Shown in pieces: positions 3,061 through 63,173 of a DNA stretch of 64,000 bases (positions within the stretch are counted from its first letter, which is position 1; each line of letters starts with the position of its first letter). This stretch comes from Methanosarcinales archaeon (GTDB taxonomy: Archaea; Halobacteriota; Methanosarcinia; Methanosarcinales; Methanocomedenaceae). The DNA lies in the NCBI GenBank assembly GCA_030627385.1, contig DAOUSF010000001.1:12077-76076 (forward strand), in the 5' to 3' direction. The notes beneath the pieces are model-generated. The model made no database searches. It was not told where the DNA came from and was given only the letters and a program-made list of their open reading frames with translations. The translations under genes and the position numbers were made by a program.

Positions 3061-3115
3061 GGATAAGGCGGTCTTGTTCTTAATAGTCATATAATCGAAT
3101 GAAAAGGAGTAAATC

Positions 3116-3625
3116 ATGGGAAATCTTAAGGATGTTGTAACTGTTGATTGTAAGTCATTTGGCAAAAAAAGTGCTAATTTTAAAAAATGTTTGACCTGTG
3201 AGGATGAGGTGAAGAAGGCCTGCCAGGATGCTTTTATTGCATTAAGTGCCGAAAAAACTGAAGTAAAAGGAACTGAAGTAAAAGAAATTACCAATAATCA
3301 GGAGAATCAAAAGAATCAGGAGATTAAAACAATGAAAAACTTGAAAAATTCCACAAATTCAACAACTGCCGCAACAAATGCAAAAATTGGAAAAGCCCAG
3401 ATGGTTAAGGATATGATCTTTAGCCTCGCAAGAAAAGCCGAATATACTCGGAAAGAATTGGGACAGGCTATTCAAGCTTCCTTTCCTGAGTATAAAAATT
3501 CTACTTTGTCCACTTATATCTCTGATTCGTTTAATGTGAAATATGCAGGAGTTACAGGATGTGGCGCCCATCGGATGTTGTCATATGTCCAGACTGGCAA
3601 GAAAAAAATCATAGTAGTAAGATAA
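3116..3625 (+). CDS. hypothetical protein; C-terminal domain paralogous to the 32379..32948 protein (putative DNA-binding)
   Basis: RBS AAAGGAG. The C-terminus ...YTRKELGQAIQASFPEYKNSTLSTYISDSFNVKY aligns with ...HTKKEIVDEVAPKFPDVTVSTISTFVQDCMNVKY of the 32379 ORF. Confidence 0.7.
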   Translation: MGNLKDVVTVDCKSFGKKSANFKKCLTCEDEVKKACQDAFIALSAEKTEVKGTEVKEITNNQENQKNQEIKTMKNLKNSTNSTTAATNAKIGKAQMVKDMIFSLARKAEYTRKELGQAIQASFPEYKNSTLSTYISDSFNVKYAGVTGCGAHRMLSYVQTGKKKIIVVR

Positions 3626-6357: not shown

Positions 6358-6545
6358 TGGCAGACGTATTCAAGGAATTAGAGGAGACTCATTCCCAAGG
6401 AGTTATCAGTATTGAAACCGTTCCTGATATTGGTGTTATGAATGGTGATCTGGGAATCCAAATTGCACCCGATGGCCGTGTTTGGGTGTGCATTAATGGT
6501 ATAGCATTCCTTAGGTTTAATCCAAATGTCAAATTGAAGGAGTAA
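6357..6545 (+). CDS. hypothetical protein
   Basis: RBS GAAGGAGAG. The start overlaps the previous stop (TAATG). Confidence 0.5.
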   Translation: MADVFKELEETHSQGVISIETVPDIGVMNGDLGIQIAPDGRVWVCINGIAFLRFNPNVKLKE

Positions 6546-6723
6546 AAATTGCATATCTTCAAATTATTGAGGTGGTTATATTCTTATAGGTACCCCGTGG
6601 TGCCCCCAATTAAGGTTATGAATATCAAACCTAAAACAGGCATCTTGAATCGTAAACCAAATACCAATATCAAACAACCCACAAGTAGGGCAGGGTTTAA
6701 AAGAGGAAACAGGAGAAATTAAG

Positions 6724-12051: not shown

Positions 12052-12077
12052 GGTTCGCTGTATTTTGTCTATTTTAG

Positions 12078-17427: not shown

Positions 17428-17456
17428 TTGACTTTTATGTAAAATTATGTAATAAT
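17428..17456 (+). promoter_or_regulatory. class-1 phage promoter, copy d
   Basis: TTGACT-17 nt-(TGT)AATAAT followed by GTGTATAT. Confidence 0.7.
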
Positions 17457-17487
17457 GTGTATATAATAAATTAGACAAGGAGATTAA

Positions 17488-18252: not shown

Positions 18253-18452
18253 TGGATTTTATTATAACGGGACTTATTTATTGGATATTCAATATCTTTT
18301 GTCCCAAAAATCCTGTGCAGAAAAATGTCCAGTCACATAAACCAGTAAACGAATGGGGTTATTTCATCTTTAGTGAGGAACGGGGTTGTAATCAATCAGA
18401 TAATGATCCGTTCCTCAATGAAGATTACAACGAAGGGGGGCCTGATTGGTAA
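18252..18452 (+). CDS. hypothetical protein
   Basis: 66 aa; TAATG coupling. Confidence 0.45.
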   Translation: MDFIITGLIYWIFNIFCPKNPVQKNVQSHKPVNEWGYFIFSEERGCNQSDNDPFLNEDYNEGGPDW

Positions 18453-18454
18453 AT

Positions 18455-19819
18455 ATGAAACCTATAATTACCATAGGGAAGGGAGTCGTGGGTGAAAACT
18501 TGCCCACGGCTCTGATTAAAAAGATCAAGAAGGATCTTACCTTCAAAAATCCTGACTATGAAAATGCCATGAAATTCGGGAAATTTATTTCTGCGGATAT
18601 GCCCTCCCATCTTCATTTATTTGATATTGAGGATGACAATGCATGGGTGCCAAGGGGTTATATTCACTGGTTAATGAAGTGGATGCATAACAAAAAAGTT
18701 AAATTCACTTTGAGGGATAAAACCCTGCTCTTGAAACCACTGAATCTGAAATTTATAGGAAAACTCAGAGACTATCAAGATGTAGCCATGACGCCTCTAT
18801 CAAGGTATCCTTGTGGAGTTTTGGAAGCCGCAACAGGATCAGGAAAAACGGTTATAGGCATAAATATGATCGTAAAAAGACAGCAACCTACACTTGTAAT
18901 TGTTCATAGCAAAGAATTAATGTACCAATGGAAGGATCAAATAAAATCTTTTATAGGATTGGAGGCAGGGTTAGTAGGGGACGGTAAATTCAATATACAA
19001 CCTGTGACTATAGGAATAATTAACACAGTCAGAAACAAGGTAGAGCAATTAGAACCTCATTTTGGTCATATAATCTGTGACGAGGTACATAGGATAACCT
19101 CAGAGTCATGGGCAGGAACTATGCAAGGGTTCAGAGCGAGGTACACACTTGGACTTACTGCTACTCCCTTCAGGGCTGATGGACTCGGAAACGCTATCTT
19201 TGCATCTATTGGTCCGCTAAGATGCACAATAAATAAAAAAGAATTACAAAAAAGAGGAACAGTTCTTACTCCTGATATTTACAGAATAAAATCAAAGTTT
19301 AATTATATGTTCCTAAATGATTATTCAACTATGATCTCAAGTCTTATTGAAGATACACAAAGAAACAATCTTATAGTCAGAGGAATTGCCGCAGATTTCA
19401 ATAAGCACAATGAACATATACTGATAGTATCAGACAGACAGAAACATCTTAAAATCATGCAGGAAATGCTTCATAAAAAATATAATATTTTCGGACATAT
19501 ATTAACAGGAAGTGTTGCGGATAAAAAAAGAAAAACAATAATTGAGGAAGTAAAATCGGGTAAATGTAAAATACTATTTGCAACTACTTCTTTAATTGGT
19601 GAAGGGTTTGATCTTGACAAATTAAATTGTTTGTGTTTAGCTACTCCTATAAAGTACAGTGGCAGATTAATTCAAGCAATTGGGAGGATACTTCGTCCCG
19701 ATAAAGATAATAAACGAAAAACTCCAAGAGTTTATGATATTAGGGATGAAAATGTAAGTGTCTTACAATATTCTGGGTATAATCGTGATAGGATTTATAA
19801 AAAGGAGTGGAATAGGTGA
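18455..19819 (+). CDS. SF2 DEAD/DEAH-box DNA helicase
   Basis: Motif I AATGSGKT, motif II DEVH, motif III GLTATP, motif V TTSLIGEGFD, motif VI QAIGRILR. The start may be ATG 18455 or TTG 18446. Confidence 0.85.
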   Translation: MKPIITIGKGVVGENLPTALIKKIKKDLTFKNPDYENAMKFGKFISADMPSHLHLFDIEDDNAWVPRGYIHWLMKWMHNKKVKFTLRDKTLLLKPLNLKFIGKLRDYQDVAMTPLSRYPCGVLEAATGSGKTVIGINMIVKRQQPTLVIVHSKELMYQWKDQIKSFIGLEAGLVGDGKFNIQPVTIGIINTVRNKVEQLEPHFGHIICDEVHRITSESWAGTMQGFRARYTLGLTATPFRADGLGNAIFASIGPLRCTINKKELQKRGTVLTPDIYRIKSKFNYMFLNDYSTMISSLIEDTQRNNLIVRGIAADFNKHNEHILIVSDRQKHLKIMQEMLHKKYNIFGHILTGSVADKKRKTIIEEVKSGKCKILFATTSLIGEGFDLDKLNCLCLATPIKYSGRLIQAIGRILRPDKDNKRKTPRVYDIRDENVSVLQYSGYNRDRIYKKEWNR

Positions 19820-20470
19820 AAAGATTAAATCTAAAAGGAATAAAAAGAGGGAAATTAACTTTTATTGAATTTTCACATATTGAAAATAAAAGTACATATT
19901 GGAAATGTCGATGTGATTGTGGTAATTTTATAACGGTAAAAGGAGCAGGAAAAACAAAATCATGTGGGTGTTTGGCATTAAAAGCAAGAAGTATTAATGG
20001 GAAAAATAATGAAAATAAACAGTCTCCTATTGATTTCATAAAAACAAGGATAAAAACAAATGATAAAACAGGTTGCTGGGAGTGGGCGGCTTCTCTTTTA
20101 GAAGGATATGCACGAATATCAGACAAAAGGGGGTCGTAAATCAGAAATAGCATCCAGGTATGTTTATGAACATATAAAAGGGATTGATCCGGGAAATAAA
20201 TGTGTTTGTCATACTTGTGATAATCCCAAATGTGTTAATCCCAATCATTTGTTTTTAGGAACATATCTTGATAATTTTGAAGATATGAAAAATAAAAAAA
20301 GATCAGCATGTGGGATAAAAAATTTCAAAGCCAAATTAACTGAAAAAGAAGTGCTTCAAATTAGAAGATTACATAGGAAATTAAATATAAAAGAATTAAT
20401 AGACATTTATGAGGTGGATGAGTCAACTATCCGGAGAGTAATTAAAAGAGAAACATGGAAACATATATGA
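19816..20470 (+). pseudogene. HNH homing endonuclease gene interrupted by a frameshift
   Basis: ORF 19816..20139 (...CWEWAASLLEGYARISDKRGS*) continues in another frame as GGRKSEIASRYVYEH...CHTCDNPKCVNPNHLFLGT (20108..20470). The break is at the A4G5 run, 20125-20133. Confidence 0.75.
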
Positions 20471-20549
20471 TCCACGGGATGATCGTGTTTCCGTTCTTCA
20501 ATATTCAGGGTATAACAGGGACAGAATCTATAGGAAAAAAGGATGGTAA
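20469..20549 (+). other. relic duplicate of the SF2 helicase 3' end
   Basis: It encodes DPRDDRVSVLQYSGYNRDRIYRKKGW*, compared with the helicase C-terminus YDIRDENVSVLQYSGYNRDRIYKKEWNR*. There is no start codon, and the nucleotides differ at many synonymous positions. Confidence 0.8.
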
Positions 20550-20726
20550 ATGAGCCTAAATGAAGAGTATCACCTGGAGACGGGATTGCATTCCCATTAT
20601 TTGGCAAAGGGAGGATCACACAAATACGGAACAAAAGGGTTAATATACACCCGTAAATATGTTTGGTGGTTGGAACTAAAAATTAAAAAACTCAGAAAAG
20701 AAAAACAGGATAAAAACAATTCTTGA
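20550..20726 (+). CDS. hypothetical protein (58 aa)
   Basis: ATG coupled (TAAATG) to the stop of the relic helicase end. Confidence 0.4.
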   Translation: MSLNEEYHLETGLHSHYLAKGGSHKYGTKGLIYTRKYVWWLELKIKKLRKEKQDKNNS

Positions 20727-20751
20727 CTTTTATGTAAAATTATGTAAGAAT
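20723..20751 (+). promoter_or_regulatory. class-1 phage promoter, copy e
   Basis: TTGACT-17 nt-(TGT)AAGAAT followed by ATGTATAG. Confidence 0.65.
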
Positions 20752-20793
20752 ATGTATAGTTAAAAACGCTCACAAATAAACAGGAGGAAGACA

Positions 20794-22317
20794 ATGAGTT
20801 TTAAAGAGAGAATGCAGGCCAGAAAGCAGAAACCAGTAGAAGTGCCTACGGAGTTTAAAGGGCACAAAATGACTGAGGAACAACTATTTGCCATTGAGTG
20901 CATTATCAGTGGGTATGATACAAAGGCACAGGCTCCTGCTGGTAGCGGAAAGACTTTCACTCTGGAGGCGGCTGCAAGCCAAAAGAATAGAGAACTGGGC
21001 CTTTACCTCGCATTCAACAAAGCCATTGCTGATGAAGCTGGCAGAAAATTTGGTAACAATACTGATTGCAGGACGGGTCATAGTCTTGCTTTTCGTGGTG
21101 TTGGGTACAAATACAAAGATCGTCTGGGAAAAATCACAGGGATGATGATAGCCAATAGCGGTAATATGGGTGATCTATCTTCATATCCCACAAAGTCAAA
21201 TAAAGGATATGTCGTCCTGGATACAATTCGGAGATTCTGTTATTCAGATGATCCCGAATTTAAATTTCACCATGCTCCCGTCATCAAAGGACCATACTCT
21301 GATCTCCAGGTCAAACAGATGCGGGAAGAAGTCTACCCTATTGCCGCAAAAGTCTGGGAAAAGATCCGTGATGAGAAAGGAAGTCTTCCTATAACTCATG
21401 ATCACTATTTGAAAATGTGGGCCCTGTCAAATCCTCAGATAAGCAAAGGATACATCTTGTTTGATGAGGCGCAGGATGCCAATGCGGTTATTCTTGGAGT
21501 TGTTAAACGCCAGAAGAACTGCCAGAAAATCTACGTTGGTGATAAATATCAACAAATCTATTCGTGGAGAGGTGCTGTCAATGCAATGGACTCCATTGAA
21601 ACCAAACATCATGCCTTTATCACCCAGTCTTTCAGATTCGGGCAAGGTGTTGCTGATATGGCAAATAAGATTCTGGGATGTTACATGCATCCTTCTGAGG
21701 CTCCGCCTGCTATCATTGGTTTCCAGGAAAAAGAAAGTATTGTTTCACGGAAAGCGATTGATGATCCAGATGTTCTTATCTGCCGGACCAATACAGGCGT
21801 GATTACCAATGTATTCAAGTACCTTGAGGAGGGCAAGGCAGTCTATGTCCAAGGGGGTGTGACTACAATGATGAACATGCTCCGTGGTGCTGATGACTTG
21901 ATGAACGGGAAAAGAACATATGTTCCTGACCTTACACTATTCAGCAATTGGGCAGAGGTTGTGGAATGCTCTGAAACAGAATCAGGTGCTGATCTCAGAA
22001 CACTGGTAAGCATGATAAAGGATCATGGAATACCCAAACTCCTGGAAGCTTTGAACTGCACTCACAAATCGCACTTTGGTGCTGATATAACCATTACTAC
22101 TGCTCACAAAGCAAAAGGTCTTGAATGGAGTAGGGTTAAACTGTACAATGATTTCCTGAGTCCATCCACAAATGATGCCGGTGAGGTGGTACCCATGCAA
22201 CAAGGTGAAATCAATGTCCTATATGTGGCTGCGACGAGAGCGTTGGATGTTCTTGATATTTCAGCTTGTTCCGCTTGCCGTGACGAGGTTCTTTTCAGTT
22301 CAAAAAACTCTTTCTAA
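20794..22317 (+). CDS. UvrD/Rep/PcrA-like SF1 DNA helicase
   Basis: APAGSGKT (I), ILFDEAQD (II), GDKYQQIYSWRGA (III), SFRFG (IV), TAHKAKGLEW (V), LYVAATRA (VI). Confidence 0.85.
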   Translation: MSFKERMQARKQKPVEVPTEFKGHKMTEEQLFAIECIISGYDTKAQAPAGSGKTFTLEAAASQKNRELGLYLAFNKAIADEAGRKFGNNTDCRTGHSLAFRGVGYKYKDRLGKITGMMIANSGNMGDLSSYPTKSNKGYVVLDTIRRFCYSDDPEFKFHHAPVIKGPYSDLQVKQMREEVYPIAAKVWEKIRDEKGSLPITHDHYLKMWALSNPQISKGYILFDEAQDANAVILGVVKRQKNCQKIYVGDKYQQIYSWRGAVNAMDSIETKHHAFITQSFRFGQGVADMANKILGCYMHPSEAPPAIIGFQEKESIVSRKAIDDPDVLICRTNTGVITNVFKYLEEGKAVYVQGGVTTMMNMLRGADDLMNGKRTYVPDLTLFSNWAEVVECSETESGADLRTLVSMIKDHGIPKLLEALNCTHKSHFGADITITTAHKAKGLEWSRVKLYNDFLSPSTNDAGEVVPMQQGEINVLYVAATRALDVLDISACSACRDEVLFSSKNSF

Positions 22318-32308: not shown

Positions 32309-32378
32309 GTATTTAAATTGTTCAAGAGTGAAAAAGCAGTTCAAGAGTAAATTTAATTAATTTTTAAGGAGAAAGAAA

Positions 32379-32948
32379 ATGGCAAAACTGACAGACGCCC
32401 AGAAAGCAGAAATGGCAAAATTAAAAGCGATTCCCAATGATTTGATGAAATTATCCATTGCATCCCTCAATACCTTCTTGACCAGCAAGGAAAAAGACAA
32501 AATGCCCAAAGCAAAATCCAAGGGCGAAGCCGTAAAACTTTTTACCGATGCAATTGCAGGCCTGCTTGAAGCTGACCTGGGTGAAGAAATTCCGGAAGAT
32601 GTTGCAACTTTTTATAACGACCATGTTGTGGGTGACGATGCAGAGGCTGGTGATACAGGTGCTGATGATGGAAAAGCCGCCCCCAAGCCCAAAGCTGACA
32701 AGACCAAAACAACCAAACCCCGGAAAACCAAAGCGGAAATACAAGCCCGGTATGATGCAATCTCTGCCATGATCGTCACAGGTAAACATACCAAAAAGGA
32801 AATCGTGGATGAAGTTGCTCCCAAGTTTCCGGATGTCACGGTCAGCACCATCTCCACATTTGTGCAGGACTGTATGAATGTTAAATACAACAAATTGCCC
32901 AAGTTGACGGTTAAGGCCGAAGACGGAAAACTCTCCTTCGCCAAATAG
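32379..32948 (+). CDS. Lys/Ala-rich putative DNA-binding protein (paralog of the 3116..3625 C-domain)
   Basis: RBS AAGGAGAAAG. Central AAPKPKADKTKTTKPRKTK tract. The C-domain is shared with the 3116 ORF. The gene has its own promoter and terminator. Confidence 0.75.
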   Translation: MAKLTDAQKAEMAKLKAIPNDLMKLSIASLNTFLTSKEKDKMPKAKSKGEAVKLFTDAIAGLLEADLGEEIPEDVATFYNDHVVGDDAEAGDTGADDGKAAPKPKADKTKTTKPRKTKAEIQARYDAISAMIVTGKHTKKEIVDEVAPKFPDVTVSTISTFVQDCMNVKYNKLPKLTVKAEDGKLSFAK

Positions 32949-46521: not shown

Positions 46522-47403
46522 ATGGCACGGAAAAGGATTCTGTTAATGGACACCTCAAGTGTCCTACACATTGTAAAACACGCAGGAGGTAAACACCTCA
46601 AAGAAAAGGATAAGTCCACTTATATCATTCTTGGCTTTCTTTTTAAACTTCAATTATTAATGCAAAAAACCAAGCCTAATGTTTGTGCTTTTGCAACTGA
46701 CAGTCTTCCGGAAGATTCTGTCAGGAGAAAAATGTATCCAGGCTATAAGTTCAAAAGAAATACCCGAGAAAAGTCGGAGGCTGATCTTGCATTGGATGCA
46801 ATAGCATGGCCACAATTTGATGCTATGGAACAAGAAGTGTTGCCTATGATGGGATACTCTAATATATTCCTCACAAAGGGTCTTGAAGCTGATGACATAA
46901 TCGGAAAAATCTGTAAGTCCTACAAAAACTGTGAAATCATCATAGTAACCTCAGATCAAGATATGTATCAATTATTAACTCCCACCACATGCATCTTGAA
47001 ACCCAAAACCTCCACGTATTATACAAAGGCAATGTTTTTGAAGGAATATGGAATTGAGCCTTATATGTGGAAAAGAGTAAAAGCAATCGGGGGTTGCTCA
47101 ACTGATGAGGTTAAGGGCGTTCAAGGAGTTGCTGAAAATACTGCTTTGAAATATATTAAAGGTGAATTACCCGAGCATTGGAAATCATACAAAGCCATAA
47201 TCAGTAAGGAAGGAAAGAGAGTAATCAATCGAAACAAGTCCCTTGTGATACTTCCGTTTAGAAGAACACCTGAATACGATGTTCAACCTGATAGGGTAAG
47301 CAAGATCAGAGTTCAAGGAATGGCCAAACAATATGGATTCAAAGCAATATTGTCTGACCTGGAAAACTGGACAAGAATATTAAAAGGATGGGGATCGGTA
47401 TGA
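46522..47403 (+). CDS. 5'-3' exonuclease / flap endonuclease (T4 RNase H-like)
   Basis: ILLMDTSS, YPGYKFKR, GLEADDIIG, VTSDQDMYQLL and GGCSTDEVKGVQGVAENTA (H3TH). Confidence 0.85.
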   Translation: MARKRILLMDTSSVLHIVKHAGGKHLKEKDKSTYIILGFLFKLQLLMQKTKPNVCAFATDSLPEDSVRRKMYPGYKFKRNTREKSEADLALDAIAWPQFDAMEQEVLPMMGYSNIFLTKGLEADDIIGKICKSYKNCEIIIVTSDQDMYQLLTPTTCILKPKTSTYYTKAMFLKEYGIEPYMWKRVKAIGGCSTDEVKGVQGVAENTALKYIKGELPEHWKSYKAIISKEGKRVINRNKSLVILPFRRTPEYDVQPDRVSKIRVQGMAKQYGFKAILSDLENWTRILKGWGSV

Positions 47404-47930
47404 TAAAATTAACCCATAAAGAGTTATTAAGACAATTAATGTACAATCCTTGGAATGGTTTGTTTTATTGGAAAGTATCTAATTATTGGTCTGTAAAAGT
47501 TGGAAGTATTGCGGGAAGTTCAGATAAAGATGGGTATATCATAATAGGCATTAATGGAAAATCATATAAAGCACACAGGCTTGCTTGGTTTTATGTTTAT
47601 AATTGCTGGCCTGGAAAAAACTGTCATCATCGGGATGAGATAACATATCACAATTGGATTAGTAATTTAGGTGATGTATCACGTTCTGTCAATAACAGAA
47701 TCTCAGGAAATAATAAAAATAATACGAGTGGAGTAAAAGGTGTAAAATGGGATAAACAATCAAACAGATGGGAAACAGAAATTCATATAGATAGCAAATG
47801 TGTATATCTTGGTCGCCACAAAGATTTTGATGAGGCTGTTTGTCATAGATTAGCCTGTGAACAATGTATAGGTGATGAAAATTCTGAATCAACCAGTCCT
47901 GCTTATTTATACGTACAAGGAATGCTATGA
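47388..47930 (+). mobile_element. free-standing HNH homing endonuclease with AP2-type DNA-binding domain
   Basis: FYWKV...DGYIIIGINGKSYKAHRLAWFY...HHRD...N (HNH_3 type); NTSGVKGVKWDKQSNRWETEI...LGRHKDFDEAV (AP2). Confidence 0.8.
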
Positions 47931-63020: not shown

Positions 63021-63173
63021 ATGACACAATACGAGGAATTACACAATCAATTAATGTATAATCCTTGGACAGGTAATTTTTATTGGAAAATAGATAAAGC
63101 TAACGGCAAAGTAAAGGCAGGGGAACAGTGTGTTAATTGGGCGGGATGTGATGATAACAGTCCCGCATTTTAA
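63021..63173 (+). pseudogene. truncated relic of an HNH endonuclease gene (paralog of 47388..47930)
   Basis: ELHNQLMYNPWTGNFYWKIDKANGKVKAG aligns with ELLRQLMYNPWNGLFYWKVSNYWSVKVGS of the 47388 ORF. The ORF stops after 50 aa, before any HNH or AP2 motif. Confidence 0.6.

Follow-up and report, generated by a model that had tools for sequence, protein, structure and literature searches.

Why would a DNA helicase gene be followed, just beyond an endonuclease gene, by a second version of its own 3' end? This question is raised by a locus in a 64,000-nucleotide (nt) stretch of contig DAOUSF010000001.1 (assembly GCA_030627385.1, Methanosarcinales archaeon; positions 12,077 to 76,076), hereafter the window, which is part of a phage-like contig of ~101 kb. 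At this locus, a superfamily 2 (SF2) helicase gene is overlapped at its stop codon by an HNH endonuclease gene, and the latter is followed by a startless piece resembling the helicase C-terminus. Comparing the locus with its relatives, we consider it probable that a mobile cassette, consisting of ~68 foreign helicase 3' codons and a free-standing HNH gene, recently entered the phage lineage of the window and displaced the resident helicase tail. The features on which this argument is built are the following:

18446-19819, + strand: SF2 (ResIII/Helicase_C) DNA helicase coding sequence, 457 amino acids (aa); Pfam ResIII 8.7e-25, Helicase_C 9.8e-14; PHROG DNA helicase
19592-19612, + strand: left crossover zone in the block coding for motif V (S-L-I-G-E-G-F-D, universally conserved), placed by codon-level alignment
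19613-19819, + strand: probable foreign helicase 3' tract, codons 390-457 and stop, recognised by nt identity, a 3-codon insertion and best tail matches
19613-19639, + strand: signature patch CTT GAC AAA TTA AAT TGT TTG TGT TTA (LDKLNCLCL), which replaces the canonical APDLTALFL
19816-20470, + strand: HNH (HNH_3 / His-Me finger) homing endonuclease pseudogene, frameshifted by +1, whose GTG start overlaps the stop of the helicase (GTGA)
20464-20549, + strand: probable displaced resident helicase 3' end (the relic), (Y)DPRDDRVSVLQYSGYNRDRIYRKKGW followed by a stop, without a start codon

Two versions of one helicase end

The expressed helicase C-terminus reads ...YDIRDENVSVLQYSGYNRDRIYKKEWNR before its stop codon (in fuller form, ...PRVYDIRDENVSVLQYSGYNRDRIYKKEWNR). 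Beyond the HNH gene, the startless frame 20466-20549 translates to YDPRDDRVSVLQYSGYNRDRIYRKKGW and a stop, and runs into TAAATG. Bases 20469-20549 encode DPRDDRVSVLQYSGYNRDRIYRKKGW, and the codon that precedes them (20466-20468) is TAT, so that the relic opens with YDP; its homology to relatives starts at ~20464. A sequence-only reading of this DNA had placed the duplicate at 20469-20549, which stands once the additional Y codon is included, and its expressed counterpart from 19735, where the in-frame start is in fact 19733. It had also described the downstream frame as startless and still coupled to the next gene, and both points hold: the frame has no usable start, because no open reading frame (ORF) of at least 25 aa ends at 20549, and its TAA (20547-20549) abuts the ATG at 20550 of a 58-aa ORF. 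In the core VSVLQYSGYNRDRIY, all 15 residues are the same in the two copies and 13 of the 45 nt differ, all of them synonymously, as that reading had noticed. The duplicate is real: when the helicase was compared with the whole window by tblastn, the relic was matched at E=6.9e-8, and no other intragenomic protein self-match in the 64 kb is as strong (all ORFs of at least 70 aa compared). The only other self-matches of the window were both weak (3113-3622 with 32361-32945, 36% over 45 aa, E=5e-6; 47358-47927 with 63030-63095, 64% over 22 aa, E=3e-5). At its two ends the relic is shared with its neighbours, its first bases giving the stop codon of the HNH gene (TGA, 20468-20470) and its last ~15 nt providing the next gene with its TAAATG junction and a Shine-Dalgarno-like AAGGA.

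Which of the two ends is the resident one can be read from relatives that have no HNH gene. A protein search with the window helicase returned ~2100 homologues; below, helicase proteins carry P numbers and contigs carry L numbers, P0004 corresponding to L001, P0002 to L002 (L002-L004), P0010 to L005, P0011 to L006, P0018 to L007 and P0025 to L211. The closest homologues, P0002 (75% identical), P0003, P0004, P0007 and P0008, end in ...PRLYDPRDDRVSVLQYSGYNRD[RK]IYRKKGW, which is the relic version, and the relic is identical to P0004/L001 at 26 of 26 residues and to P0002/L002 at 25 of 26 (27 and 26, respectively, when 27 residues are compared). On L001, the helicase gene runs directly into a ggatggTAAATGagccta junction with the same TAAATG as in the window and a homologous 54-aa ORF, and this small ORF is followed by a 507-aa UvrD-like helicase and a Toprim gene, which is the gene order of the window without the HNH gene. 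The contigs of P0002 (L002-L004) are likewise devoid of HNH at this helicase-to-small-ORF/UvrD locus. HNH-less relatives hence carry the 20469-20549 version and not the 19735-19819 one, in line with the direction of displacement that had been proposed from the sequence.

At the nt level, the relic is 85.9% identical to the functional helicase end of L001 and 89.7% identical to that of L002, and only 60% identical to the window's own expressed tail; the native end is also nearer to these relatives (86-90%) than is the inserted, expressed one (65-71%). Its 11 nt differences from L001 fall in 10 codons, all 10 synonymous, and its 8 nt differences from L002 are synonymous in 7 of 8 codons (17/18 for both relatives together). 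Since random single-nt changes in the relic would be synonymous in only 21% of cases, the probability of obtaining 10/10 is ~2e-7, and the relic carries no indels or stops. Its displacement would be recent, because almost all of its divergence arose while the sequence was still a working gene end. By these comparisons, the relic appears to be the resident allele, with P0002 and P0004 as the window's nearest neighbours in the N-terminal part, and what survives of the resident tail as an untranslated remnant appears to be its last 27 codons with stop and TAAATG.

A probable imported tract with a recoded patch

Sliding identity along the window helicase shows that it is closest to P0002 over aa 1-370 (76% aa identity in the N-terminal part and up to 95% nt identity near the N-terminus), and that its closest relatives switch at ~aa 385 to P0010, P0011 and P0018. 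Codons 381-382 (ACT TCT) match L001/L002 and codons from 390 onward match L005-L007, which places the crossover between 382 and 390; over aa 373-409, nt identity is 80-85% to L005-L007 versus 65-71% to L001/L002. The window tail also has a 3-codon insertion, RPDKDNKRK (RPxKxNKxK), common to the P0010/P0011/P0018 group, and its best non-self matches are cassette-bearing helicases. The claim that a foreign helicase 3' allele arrived together with the HNH gene and displaced the resident end gains from this resemblance of the expressed tail to helicases of other HNH-carrying lineages; the cassette does include the helicase 3' end, and the extent first given to it was too short, as the tract starts ~120 nt further upstream, at ~19613. 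The helicase coding sequence 18446-19819 appears to be chimeric, resident-type to ~19591 and foreign from ~19613, with a left boundary that looks like a homologous crossover inside the motif V block and a right boundary that looks like a non-homologous junction. The imported DNA would amount to ~860 nt, from 19613 through the HNH gene to ~20463; ~38 resident codons were lost between the boundaries and the last 27 were retained and duplicated.

Between cassette lineages, nt identity peaks at the signature patch, where it reaches 83% (76% at third positions, versus a background of 29-59%, mostly 38-52%), and we regard the patch (19613-19639) as a putative endonuclease-resistant version of the homing site. 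The sequence-only reading had suggested that the synonymous changes between the two tails might remove the endonuclease target. This part is not supported: those differences reflect lineage divergence, and the likely target corresponds to the motif-V-adjacent patch. A target inside the duplicated 26 codons was considered and rejected, as intact resident tails coexist in cis with an intact HNH gene in L006; more broadly, with relics and intact HNH genes side by side in cis in L006, L007 and L168, the relic cannot contain the whole target site.

The HNH gene of the window lies in two frames (19816-20139 and 20108-20470), with an extra G in an A4G5 run at 20125-20133 (G run 20129-20133). Deleting one G yields a 217-aa protein that is colinear with intact orthologues and 67-68% identical to the HNH proteins of L006 and L007. 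The second frame alone matches PF05551 (His-Me zinc-binding loop) at 27.8 bits for a cut-off of 27, and PF13392 (HNH_3) at 24.4 bits, just under the cut-off of 24.8; in PHROG, the repaired protein has matches to endonuclease families (1e-26 and 1e-23), and the orthologues have precomputed matches to both PF13392 and PF05551. These matches point to an HNH_3 / His-Me finger enzyme whose reading frame is no longer intact in the window, while orthologous reading frames are intact in L006, L007 and L168-L171. H132, N136, N141, H144 and N153 are invariant in the three sequences of alignment A2, and by analogy these His/Asn residues would have a catalytic role in a beta-beta-alpha-metal motif. A second assembly (L210, Logan SRR1971621) agrees without a difference over 6363 nt, the HNH frameshift included, and may stem from the same reads. 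Programmed frameshifting at A4G5 was rejected, because each orthologue is a single ORF and because the run is short and the zero-frame stop, two codons away, does not adjoin it; low-level slippage at this run is possible. The window gene starts with GTG overlapping the helicase stop (AGGTGA) and all orthologues start with ATG, 1-17 nt past the stop or overlapping it, so that the GTG may be a further sign of decay or weak expression. A PDB sequence search with the HNH profile gave no match, scans of metagenome and viral contigs with the HNH alignment gave only distant HNH proteins (at most ~35% identical over the full length, or matching in the N-terminal Zn-ribbon only), and a megablast of 18446-20800 against a phage collection gave no match. 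In IMG/VR, a query with the helicase protein found no relatives, and a later one with an alignment returned 37 loci.

The same arrangement recurs in other genomes. L006 and L007 have an intact HNH gene directly after the helicase (217 aa and 212 aa as called, 217 aa by tblastn alignment), and an HNH profile search brought up further close relatives, among which L168, L169 and L170 again have HNH directly after a helicase homologue. Together with L171 and L172, this makes seven loci in which the HNH gene lies 0-17 nt after the helicase stop and encodes a protein 59-68% identical to that of the window, full-length except in L172, where the contig ends. Every HNH-linked helicase carries the patch GEGF[DS]-LD[KS]L[STN][CV]LCL. 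When the patch alone was used to predict a downstream HNH gene in P0056 and P0043, both predictions were confirmed, and L005 (P0010) retains the patch with only the first 24 nt of HNH. The patch count was made over 38 distinct related loci: the patch is present in 9/38, with HNH (8) or an HNH stub (1) directly after the helicase, and 0/29 canonical loci have HNH. For these loci, which are not phylogenetically independent, the 9/9 versus 0/29 association corresponds to a Fisher p=6e-9, or 9e-5 when collapsed to an illustrative 4 lineages versus 20. P0025/L211 was left out of the patch class: it has a half-patch (LDKLSCIFL), and the HNH_3 gene that follows its helicase is unrelated. By their N-terminal part, the patch-bearing helicases form at least four groups, each with canonical-patch neighbours. 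At least four helicase lineages have the same HNH family directly behind the helicase, and the recoded patch always goes with it.

Other elements were seen in this helicase family as well. A second, unrelated HNH_3 family (LDY..TGIF...DGY.I....HRLAW..YG) follows the helicase in L211 (4870-5439) and L005 (5563-5784), where it adjoins the stub of the first HNH gene, and endonuclease genes appear to have a hotspot at the helicase 3' junction. Inteins of 141-336 aa (C...HN/GN) occur in the relatives P0022, P0025, P0026, P0036, P0056, P0077, P0078, P0086 and P0088, at Walker A (ATG/SGKT; window aa 131, nt ~18838) and at motif II (ICDE/VH; aa 213, nt ~19084), and L171 holds both an intein and the HNH cassette. 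The family would thereby present three sites to selfish elements, with inteins at two motifs and the HNH cassette at motif V.

Relics elsewhere and a proposed history of the cassette

Relics of a displaced helicase end were also found in three of the other HNH-bearing genomes. In L006, an intact HNH gene is followed by a 65-codon relic that runs from (D)LTALFLTTPIKFAGRLVQ... (D/LTALFL, the slash here and below marking the junction or break) to ...YKKEWK and a stop; it is most similar to canonical, non-cassette helicases, including P0015 and P0017, which are the neighbours of L006 in the N-terminal part. The relic of L007 has the same start (TYLTA), then an internal deletion, and ends in YKKEWR and a stop. 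In L168, only RIYKKEWGS and a stop are left, and in L169-L171 no relic was visible. Every relic has, in its last bases, the start context of the next gene together with a Shine-Dalgarno sequence of the AAGGA type, and this would be why short relics persist.

In all four relic-bearing genomes the HNH protein ends in ...W[TK]HI and its stop codon comes from resident sequence, and the HNH 3' junctions have 2-6 nt of microhomology (4/4). The junction reads CATAT/TTAACTGC in L006 and L007 and CATATAT/AAAAAGG in L168. In the window it reads CATATAT/GATCC, where the ...CATAT of the HNH gene meets a resident TAT GAT CC at ~20464, with 2-5 nt of microhomology. In L169 (3655-3696), L170 (2490-2531) and L171 (6045-6089), the HNH gene does not stop after the usual ...WKHI but continues into a basic tail (TYTKPKRRRKIKR); these are the three lineages without a relic, while the relic-bearing genomes take the stop after HI from resident helicase DNA.

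In the history that we propose, the enzyme would recognise canonical DNA encoding GFD-APDLTALFL in HNH-less alleles and would break it near GAT/TTA ACT GC, the point where the L006 and L007 relics begin. This point can be pinned because the L006/L007 junction and the left crossover of the window lie within ~30 nt of each other. The break would then be repaired from an HNH-bearing, co-infecting phage of a divergent type. As the downstream genes are not the same from lineage to lineage, only the left side would offer homology for repair, and the right end would join by microhomology. A relic would need such a non-homologous right junction, or a donor that already carried the relic; alternatively, the window may first have had a long relic like that of L006, later trimmed by a microhomology deletion. 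The carrier would be protected from self-cleavage by the recoded patch of the cassette and by the splitting of the site upon insertion. After fixation, the endonuclease would decay, and selection would still act only on the last bases of the relic, where the next gene has its ribosome-binding site and start context.

Could the cassette and the relic instead be ancient and vertically inherited, L001 and L002 being revertants that arose by recombination between the direct helicase-tail repeats? The HNH proteins diverge between lineages (59-68%) about as much as the helicases do (50-59%), direct repeats around the HNH gene would permit its precise excision, and L005 shows that HNH loss happens. 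However, an old, unselected relic should have accumulated non-synonymous changes, indels and stops, which the nearly always synonymous differences of the window relic contradict. Moreover, excision between ~60%-identical repeats that begin at YD cannot restore a canonical patch 120 nt upstream, yet L001 and L002 are fully canonical, and by their N-terminal part the patch-bearing helicases are interspersed with canonical ones. Altogether, we find this scenario unlikely.

Two further scenarios appear far less probable still, to about the same degree. In the first, the helicase 3' end was duplicated in tandem, the copies diverged in place and the HNH gene landed between them, with no foreign helicase DNA involved. 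The copies are indeed adjacent direct repeats in the same orientation, but the relic is much nearer to the orthologous ends of other phages than to the expressed copy, and the latter has the patch and the 3-codon indel otherwise seen in HNH-bearing lineages; both would have to be recreated by convergence back to motif V, which is not duplicated. In the second, the locus is a metagenome assembly chimera of HNH-bearing and HNH-less strains, and the frameshift is a sequencing or assembly error. The contig does derive from a metagenome and homopolymer runs can be miscalled, but the second assembler gave an identical sequence over 6.4 kb, including the junctions and the G5 run (possibly from the same reads), analogous relic junctions occur in the unrelated samples L006, L007 and L168, and an in-register microhomology junction that provides the HNH stop codon would not be expected from a chimera. 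The weakest alternative, an HNH gene inside a group I intron or intein with the downstream piece as second exon or extein, has in its favour the inteins at two other motifs of this family and the frequency of HNH genes in phage group I introns, but it can practically be dismissed, as the helicase has a complete tail and stop which the downstream piece duplicates and does not complete, no Rfam family (group I introns included) matches 19300-20900 at E <=1, and the HNH gene is in another frame with its own start and without Hint or intein domains in Pfam.

Several observations nonetheless weigh against recent import from a divergent phage. No donor was found, the nearest cassette alleles being ~70-85% nt identical to the window tract and their HNH proteins 59-68% identical in aa. 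Since HNH divergence roughly parallels that of the helicases, the history of the cassette may be largely vertical with few transfers, and the dependence among the loci bears on the strength of the patch-HNH association. Beyond the patch (aa 405-457), the window tail is not clearly closer in nt to cassette alleles than to L001/L002, and what argues for its foreign origin there comes down to the 3-codon indel, the KKEWNR end and the 60% nt identity to the relic. The target site and its cleavage are inferred in their entirety, and the window enzyme is frameshifted. Lastly, direct illegitimate joining and later trimming of a longer relic are indistinguishable. The label of intronless homing that the sequence-only reading had given to the locus is apt as regards the presence/absence polymorphism and the co-conversion, and fails as regards clean replacement, since the right junction is one of microhomology and a 27-codon duplicate was left behind.

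A more specific view of the element is that it is a splicing-free counterpart of introns and inteins, with a precise homing site after motif V and its own recoded replacement tail that keeps the gene functional. The relic might then serve as a right homology arm for homing into divergent phages and as a direct repeat for precise excision, and the 27-nt patch might be an immunity determinant, held in addiction-like linkage to the endonuclease by selection against self-cleavage. We put this set of ideas forward tentatively and would sooner bet against it than for it.

Two further features lie downstream of the relic:

20550-20726, + strand: small conserved ORF of 58 aa (MSLNEEYH...); L001 has a homologue immediately behind its helicase gene (6456-6620), and L211 has one too
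20723-20760, + strand: conserved promoter-like element, which precedes the UvrD-like helicase gene (20794-22317)

The 58-aa ORF appears to be the native downstream neighbour of the helicase, and the promoter-like element seems to mark the end of the native synteny common to the window, L001 and L002. This 38-nt element (TTGACTTTTATGTAAAATTATGTAAGAATATGTATAGT) occurs twice in the window, at 17428-17465 and 20723-20760, for a chance expectation of 0; its two copies bracket the helicase module, and the element is kept at the equivalent position in L001 and L002. In L002, the closest HNH-less relative (1906-2356; also in L003 and L004), two tandem small Zn-ribbon ORFs (W.C.C.CG...TKSCGC) replace the MSLNEEYH ORF. 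Both resemble the DNA-binding domain at the N-terminus of the HNH protein (41-44% identity), and may be the remains of another endonuclease or free-standing binding domains. A transfer RNA (tRNA) scan found none.

Precedents and meaning

The closest precedent appears to be the mobile ORF (mORF) gene hybrids of fungal mitochondria, such as atp6 of Allomyces macrogynus. According to Beaudet et al. 2013 (PMC3630166, citing Paquin et al. 1994), such hybrids are known for Allomyces macrogynus atp6, for atp6, atp9, cox2 and nad3 of Glomus sp., for Rhizopus atp9 and for Mortierella cox2. There, as in the window, an endonuclease ORF brings a foreign C-terminus that is fused in frame to the native core, and the native C-terminus is displaced downstream. 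The window has this order, with native sequence at 18446-19612, foreign sequence at 19613-19819, HNH at 19816-20470 and the relic at 20464-20549. In both systems the displaced copy is nearer to a close relative than the inserted copy (91-98% versus 64-81% in Glomus, PMC3630166; 86-90% versus ~60% here), and the protein is nearly unchanged while its DNA is recoded. Unlike these hybrids, the window belongs to a phage-like contig and not to mitochondrial DNA; its enzyme is of the HNH_3/His-Me finger type, not LAGLIDADG or GIY-YIG; its HNH ORF is separate (GTGA overlap), whereas the mORF is in phase with the host gene; and ~200 nt upstream it has a conserved recoded patch whose linkage to the endonuclease is tight in one lineage after another.

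The intronless homing of free-standing endonucleases in T4 (SegF, SegG and others; Edgell, Gibb and Belfort 2010, PMC2988022) resembles our case in that a free-standing gene lies between essential replication genes, shows presence/absence polymorphism among relatives and co-converts flanking markers, with a cleavage site (here an inferred one) hundreds of bp from the endonuclease gene. T4 Seg homing, however, has homology on both sides and leaves no duplicate, whereas the right junction of the window is non-homologous and bears a relic of the target. One-sided homing with microhomology junctions has been documented in T4 (PMC2988022, citing Parker et al. 1999); it shares with the window homology on one side, junctions at microhomologies after resection and the invasion of sites with heterologous flanks, but it was an engineered system with intron donors, whereas the window is a natural product, with three junction positions across four related phages. 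Homing endonuclease genes (HEGs) also split phage genes, as do mobE in Aeh1 nrdA and mobA in the T4 gene 60 region (PMC2988022), or, in ICP1 phages, are found at the boundaries of recombination (Barth et al. 2023, PMC10448857). Like the window, these have HNH-family genes in or beside essential DNA-metabolism genes and at mosaic boundaries, and frameshifted HEGs are common; there the host gene either ends up as two functional pieces or is simply flanked, whereas the window helicase is whole through an imported tail and its old tail is discarded. In a literature search with incomplete coverage, we found no phage precedent for a displaced target-gene tail beside a HEG.

Integrative elements that enter a tRNA or protein gene at its 3' end bring along a replacement for that end, which restores an intact gene. 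As in the window, the displaced native 3' part is left or duplicated. Unlike the window, which has no integrase and for which we propose break repair, they use site-specific recombinases and short identical attachment (att) cores.

The locus is thus best described as the version, in a phage and with an HNH enzyme, of a mechanism known in fungal mitochondria. The feature itself is real and well supported. The spread of HEGs between phages with little flanking homology has been studied mostly in engineered T4 systems. The window and its relatives offer a graded natural series, from an empty site through an intact gene with a long relic, eroded relics and a frameshifted gene to a deleted gene with a resistant allele, in which every junction is mapped to the nucleotide, and the data point to a homing site within an interval of ~30 bp, which is testable. 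For annotation, short startless duplicates beside HNH genes would be informative relics, and the window helicase is to be read as a mosaic. More generally, phages and fungal mitochondria would have come in parallel to one solution for insertion into an essential gene that needs no splicing.

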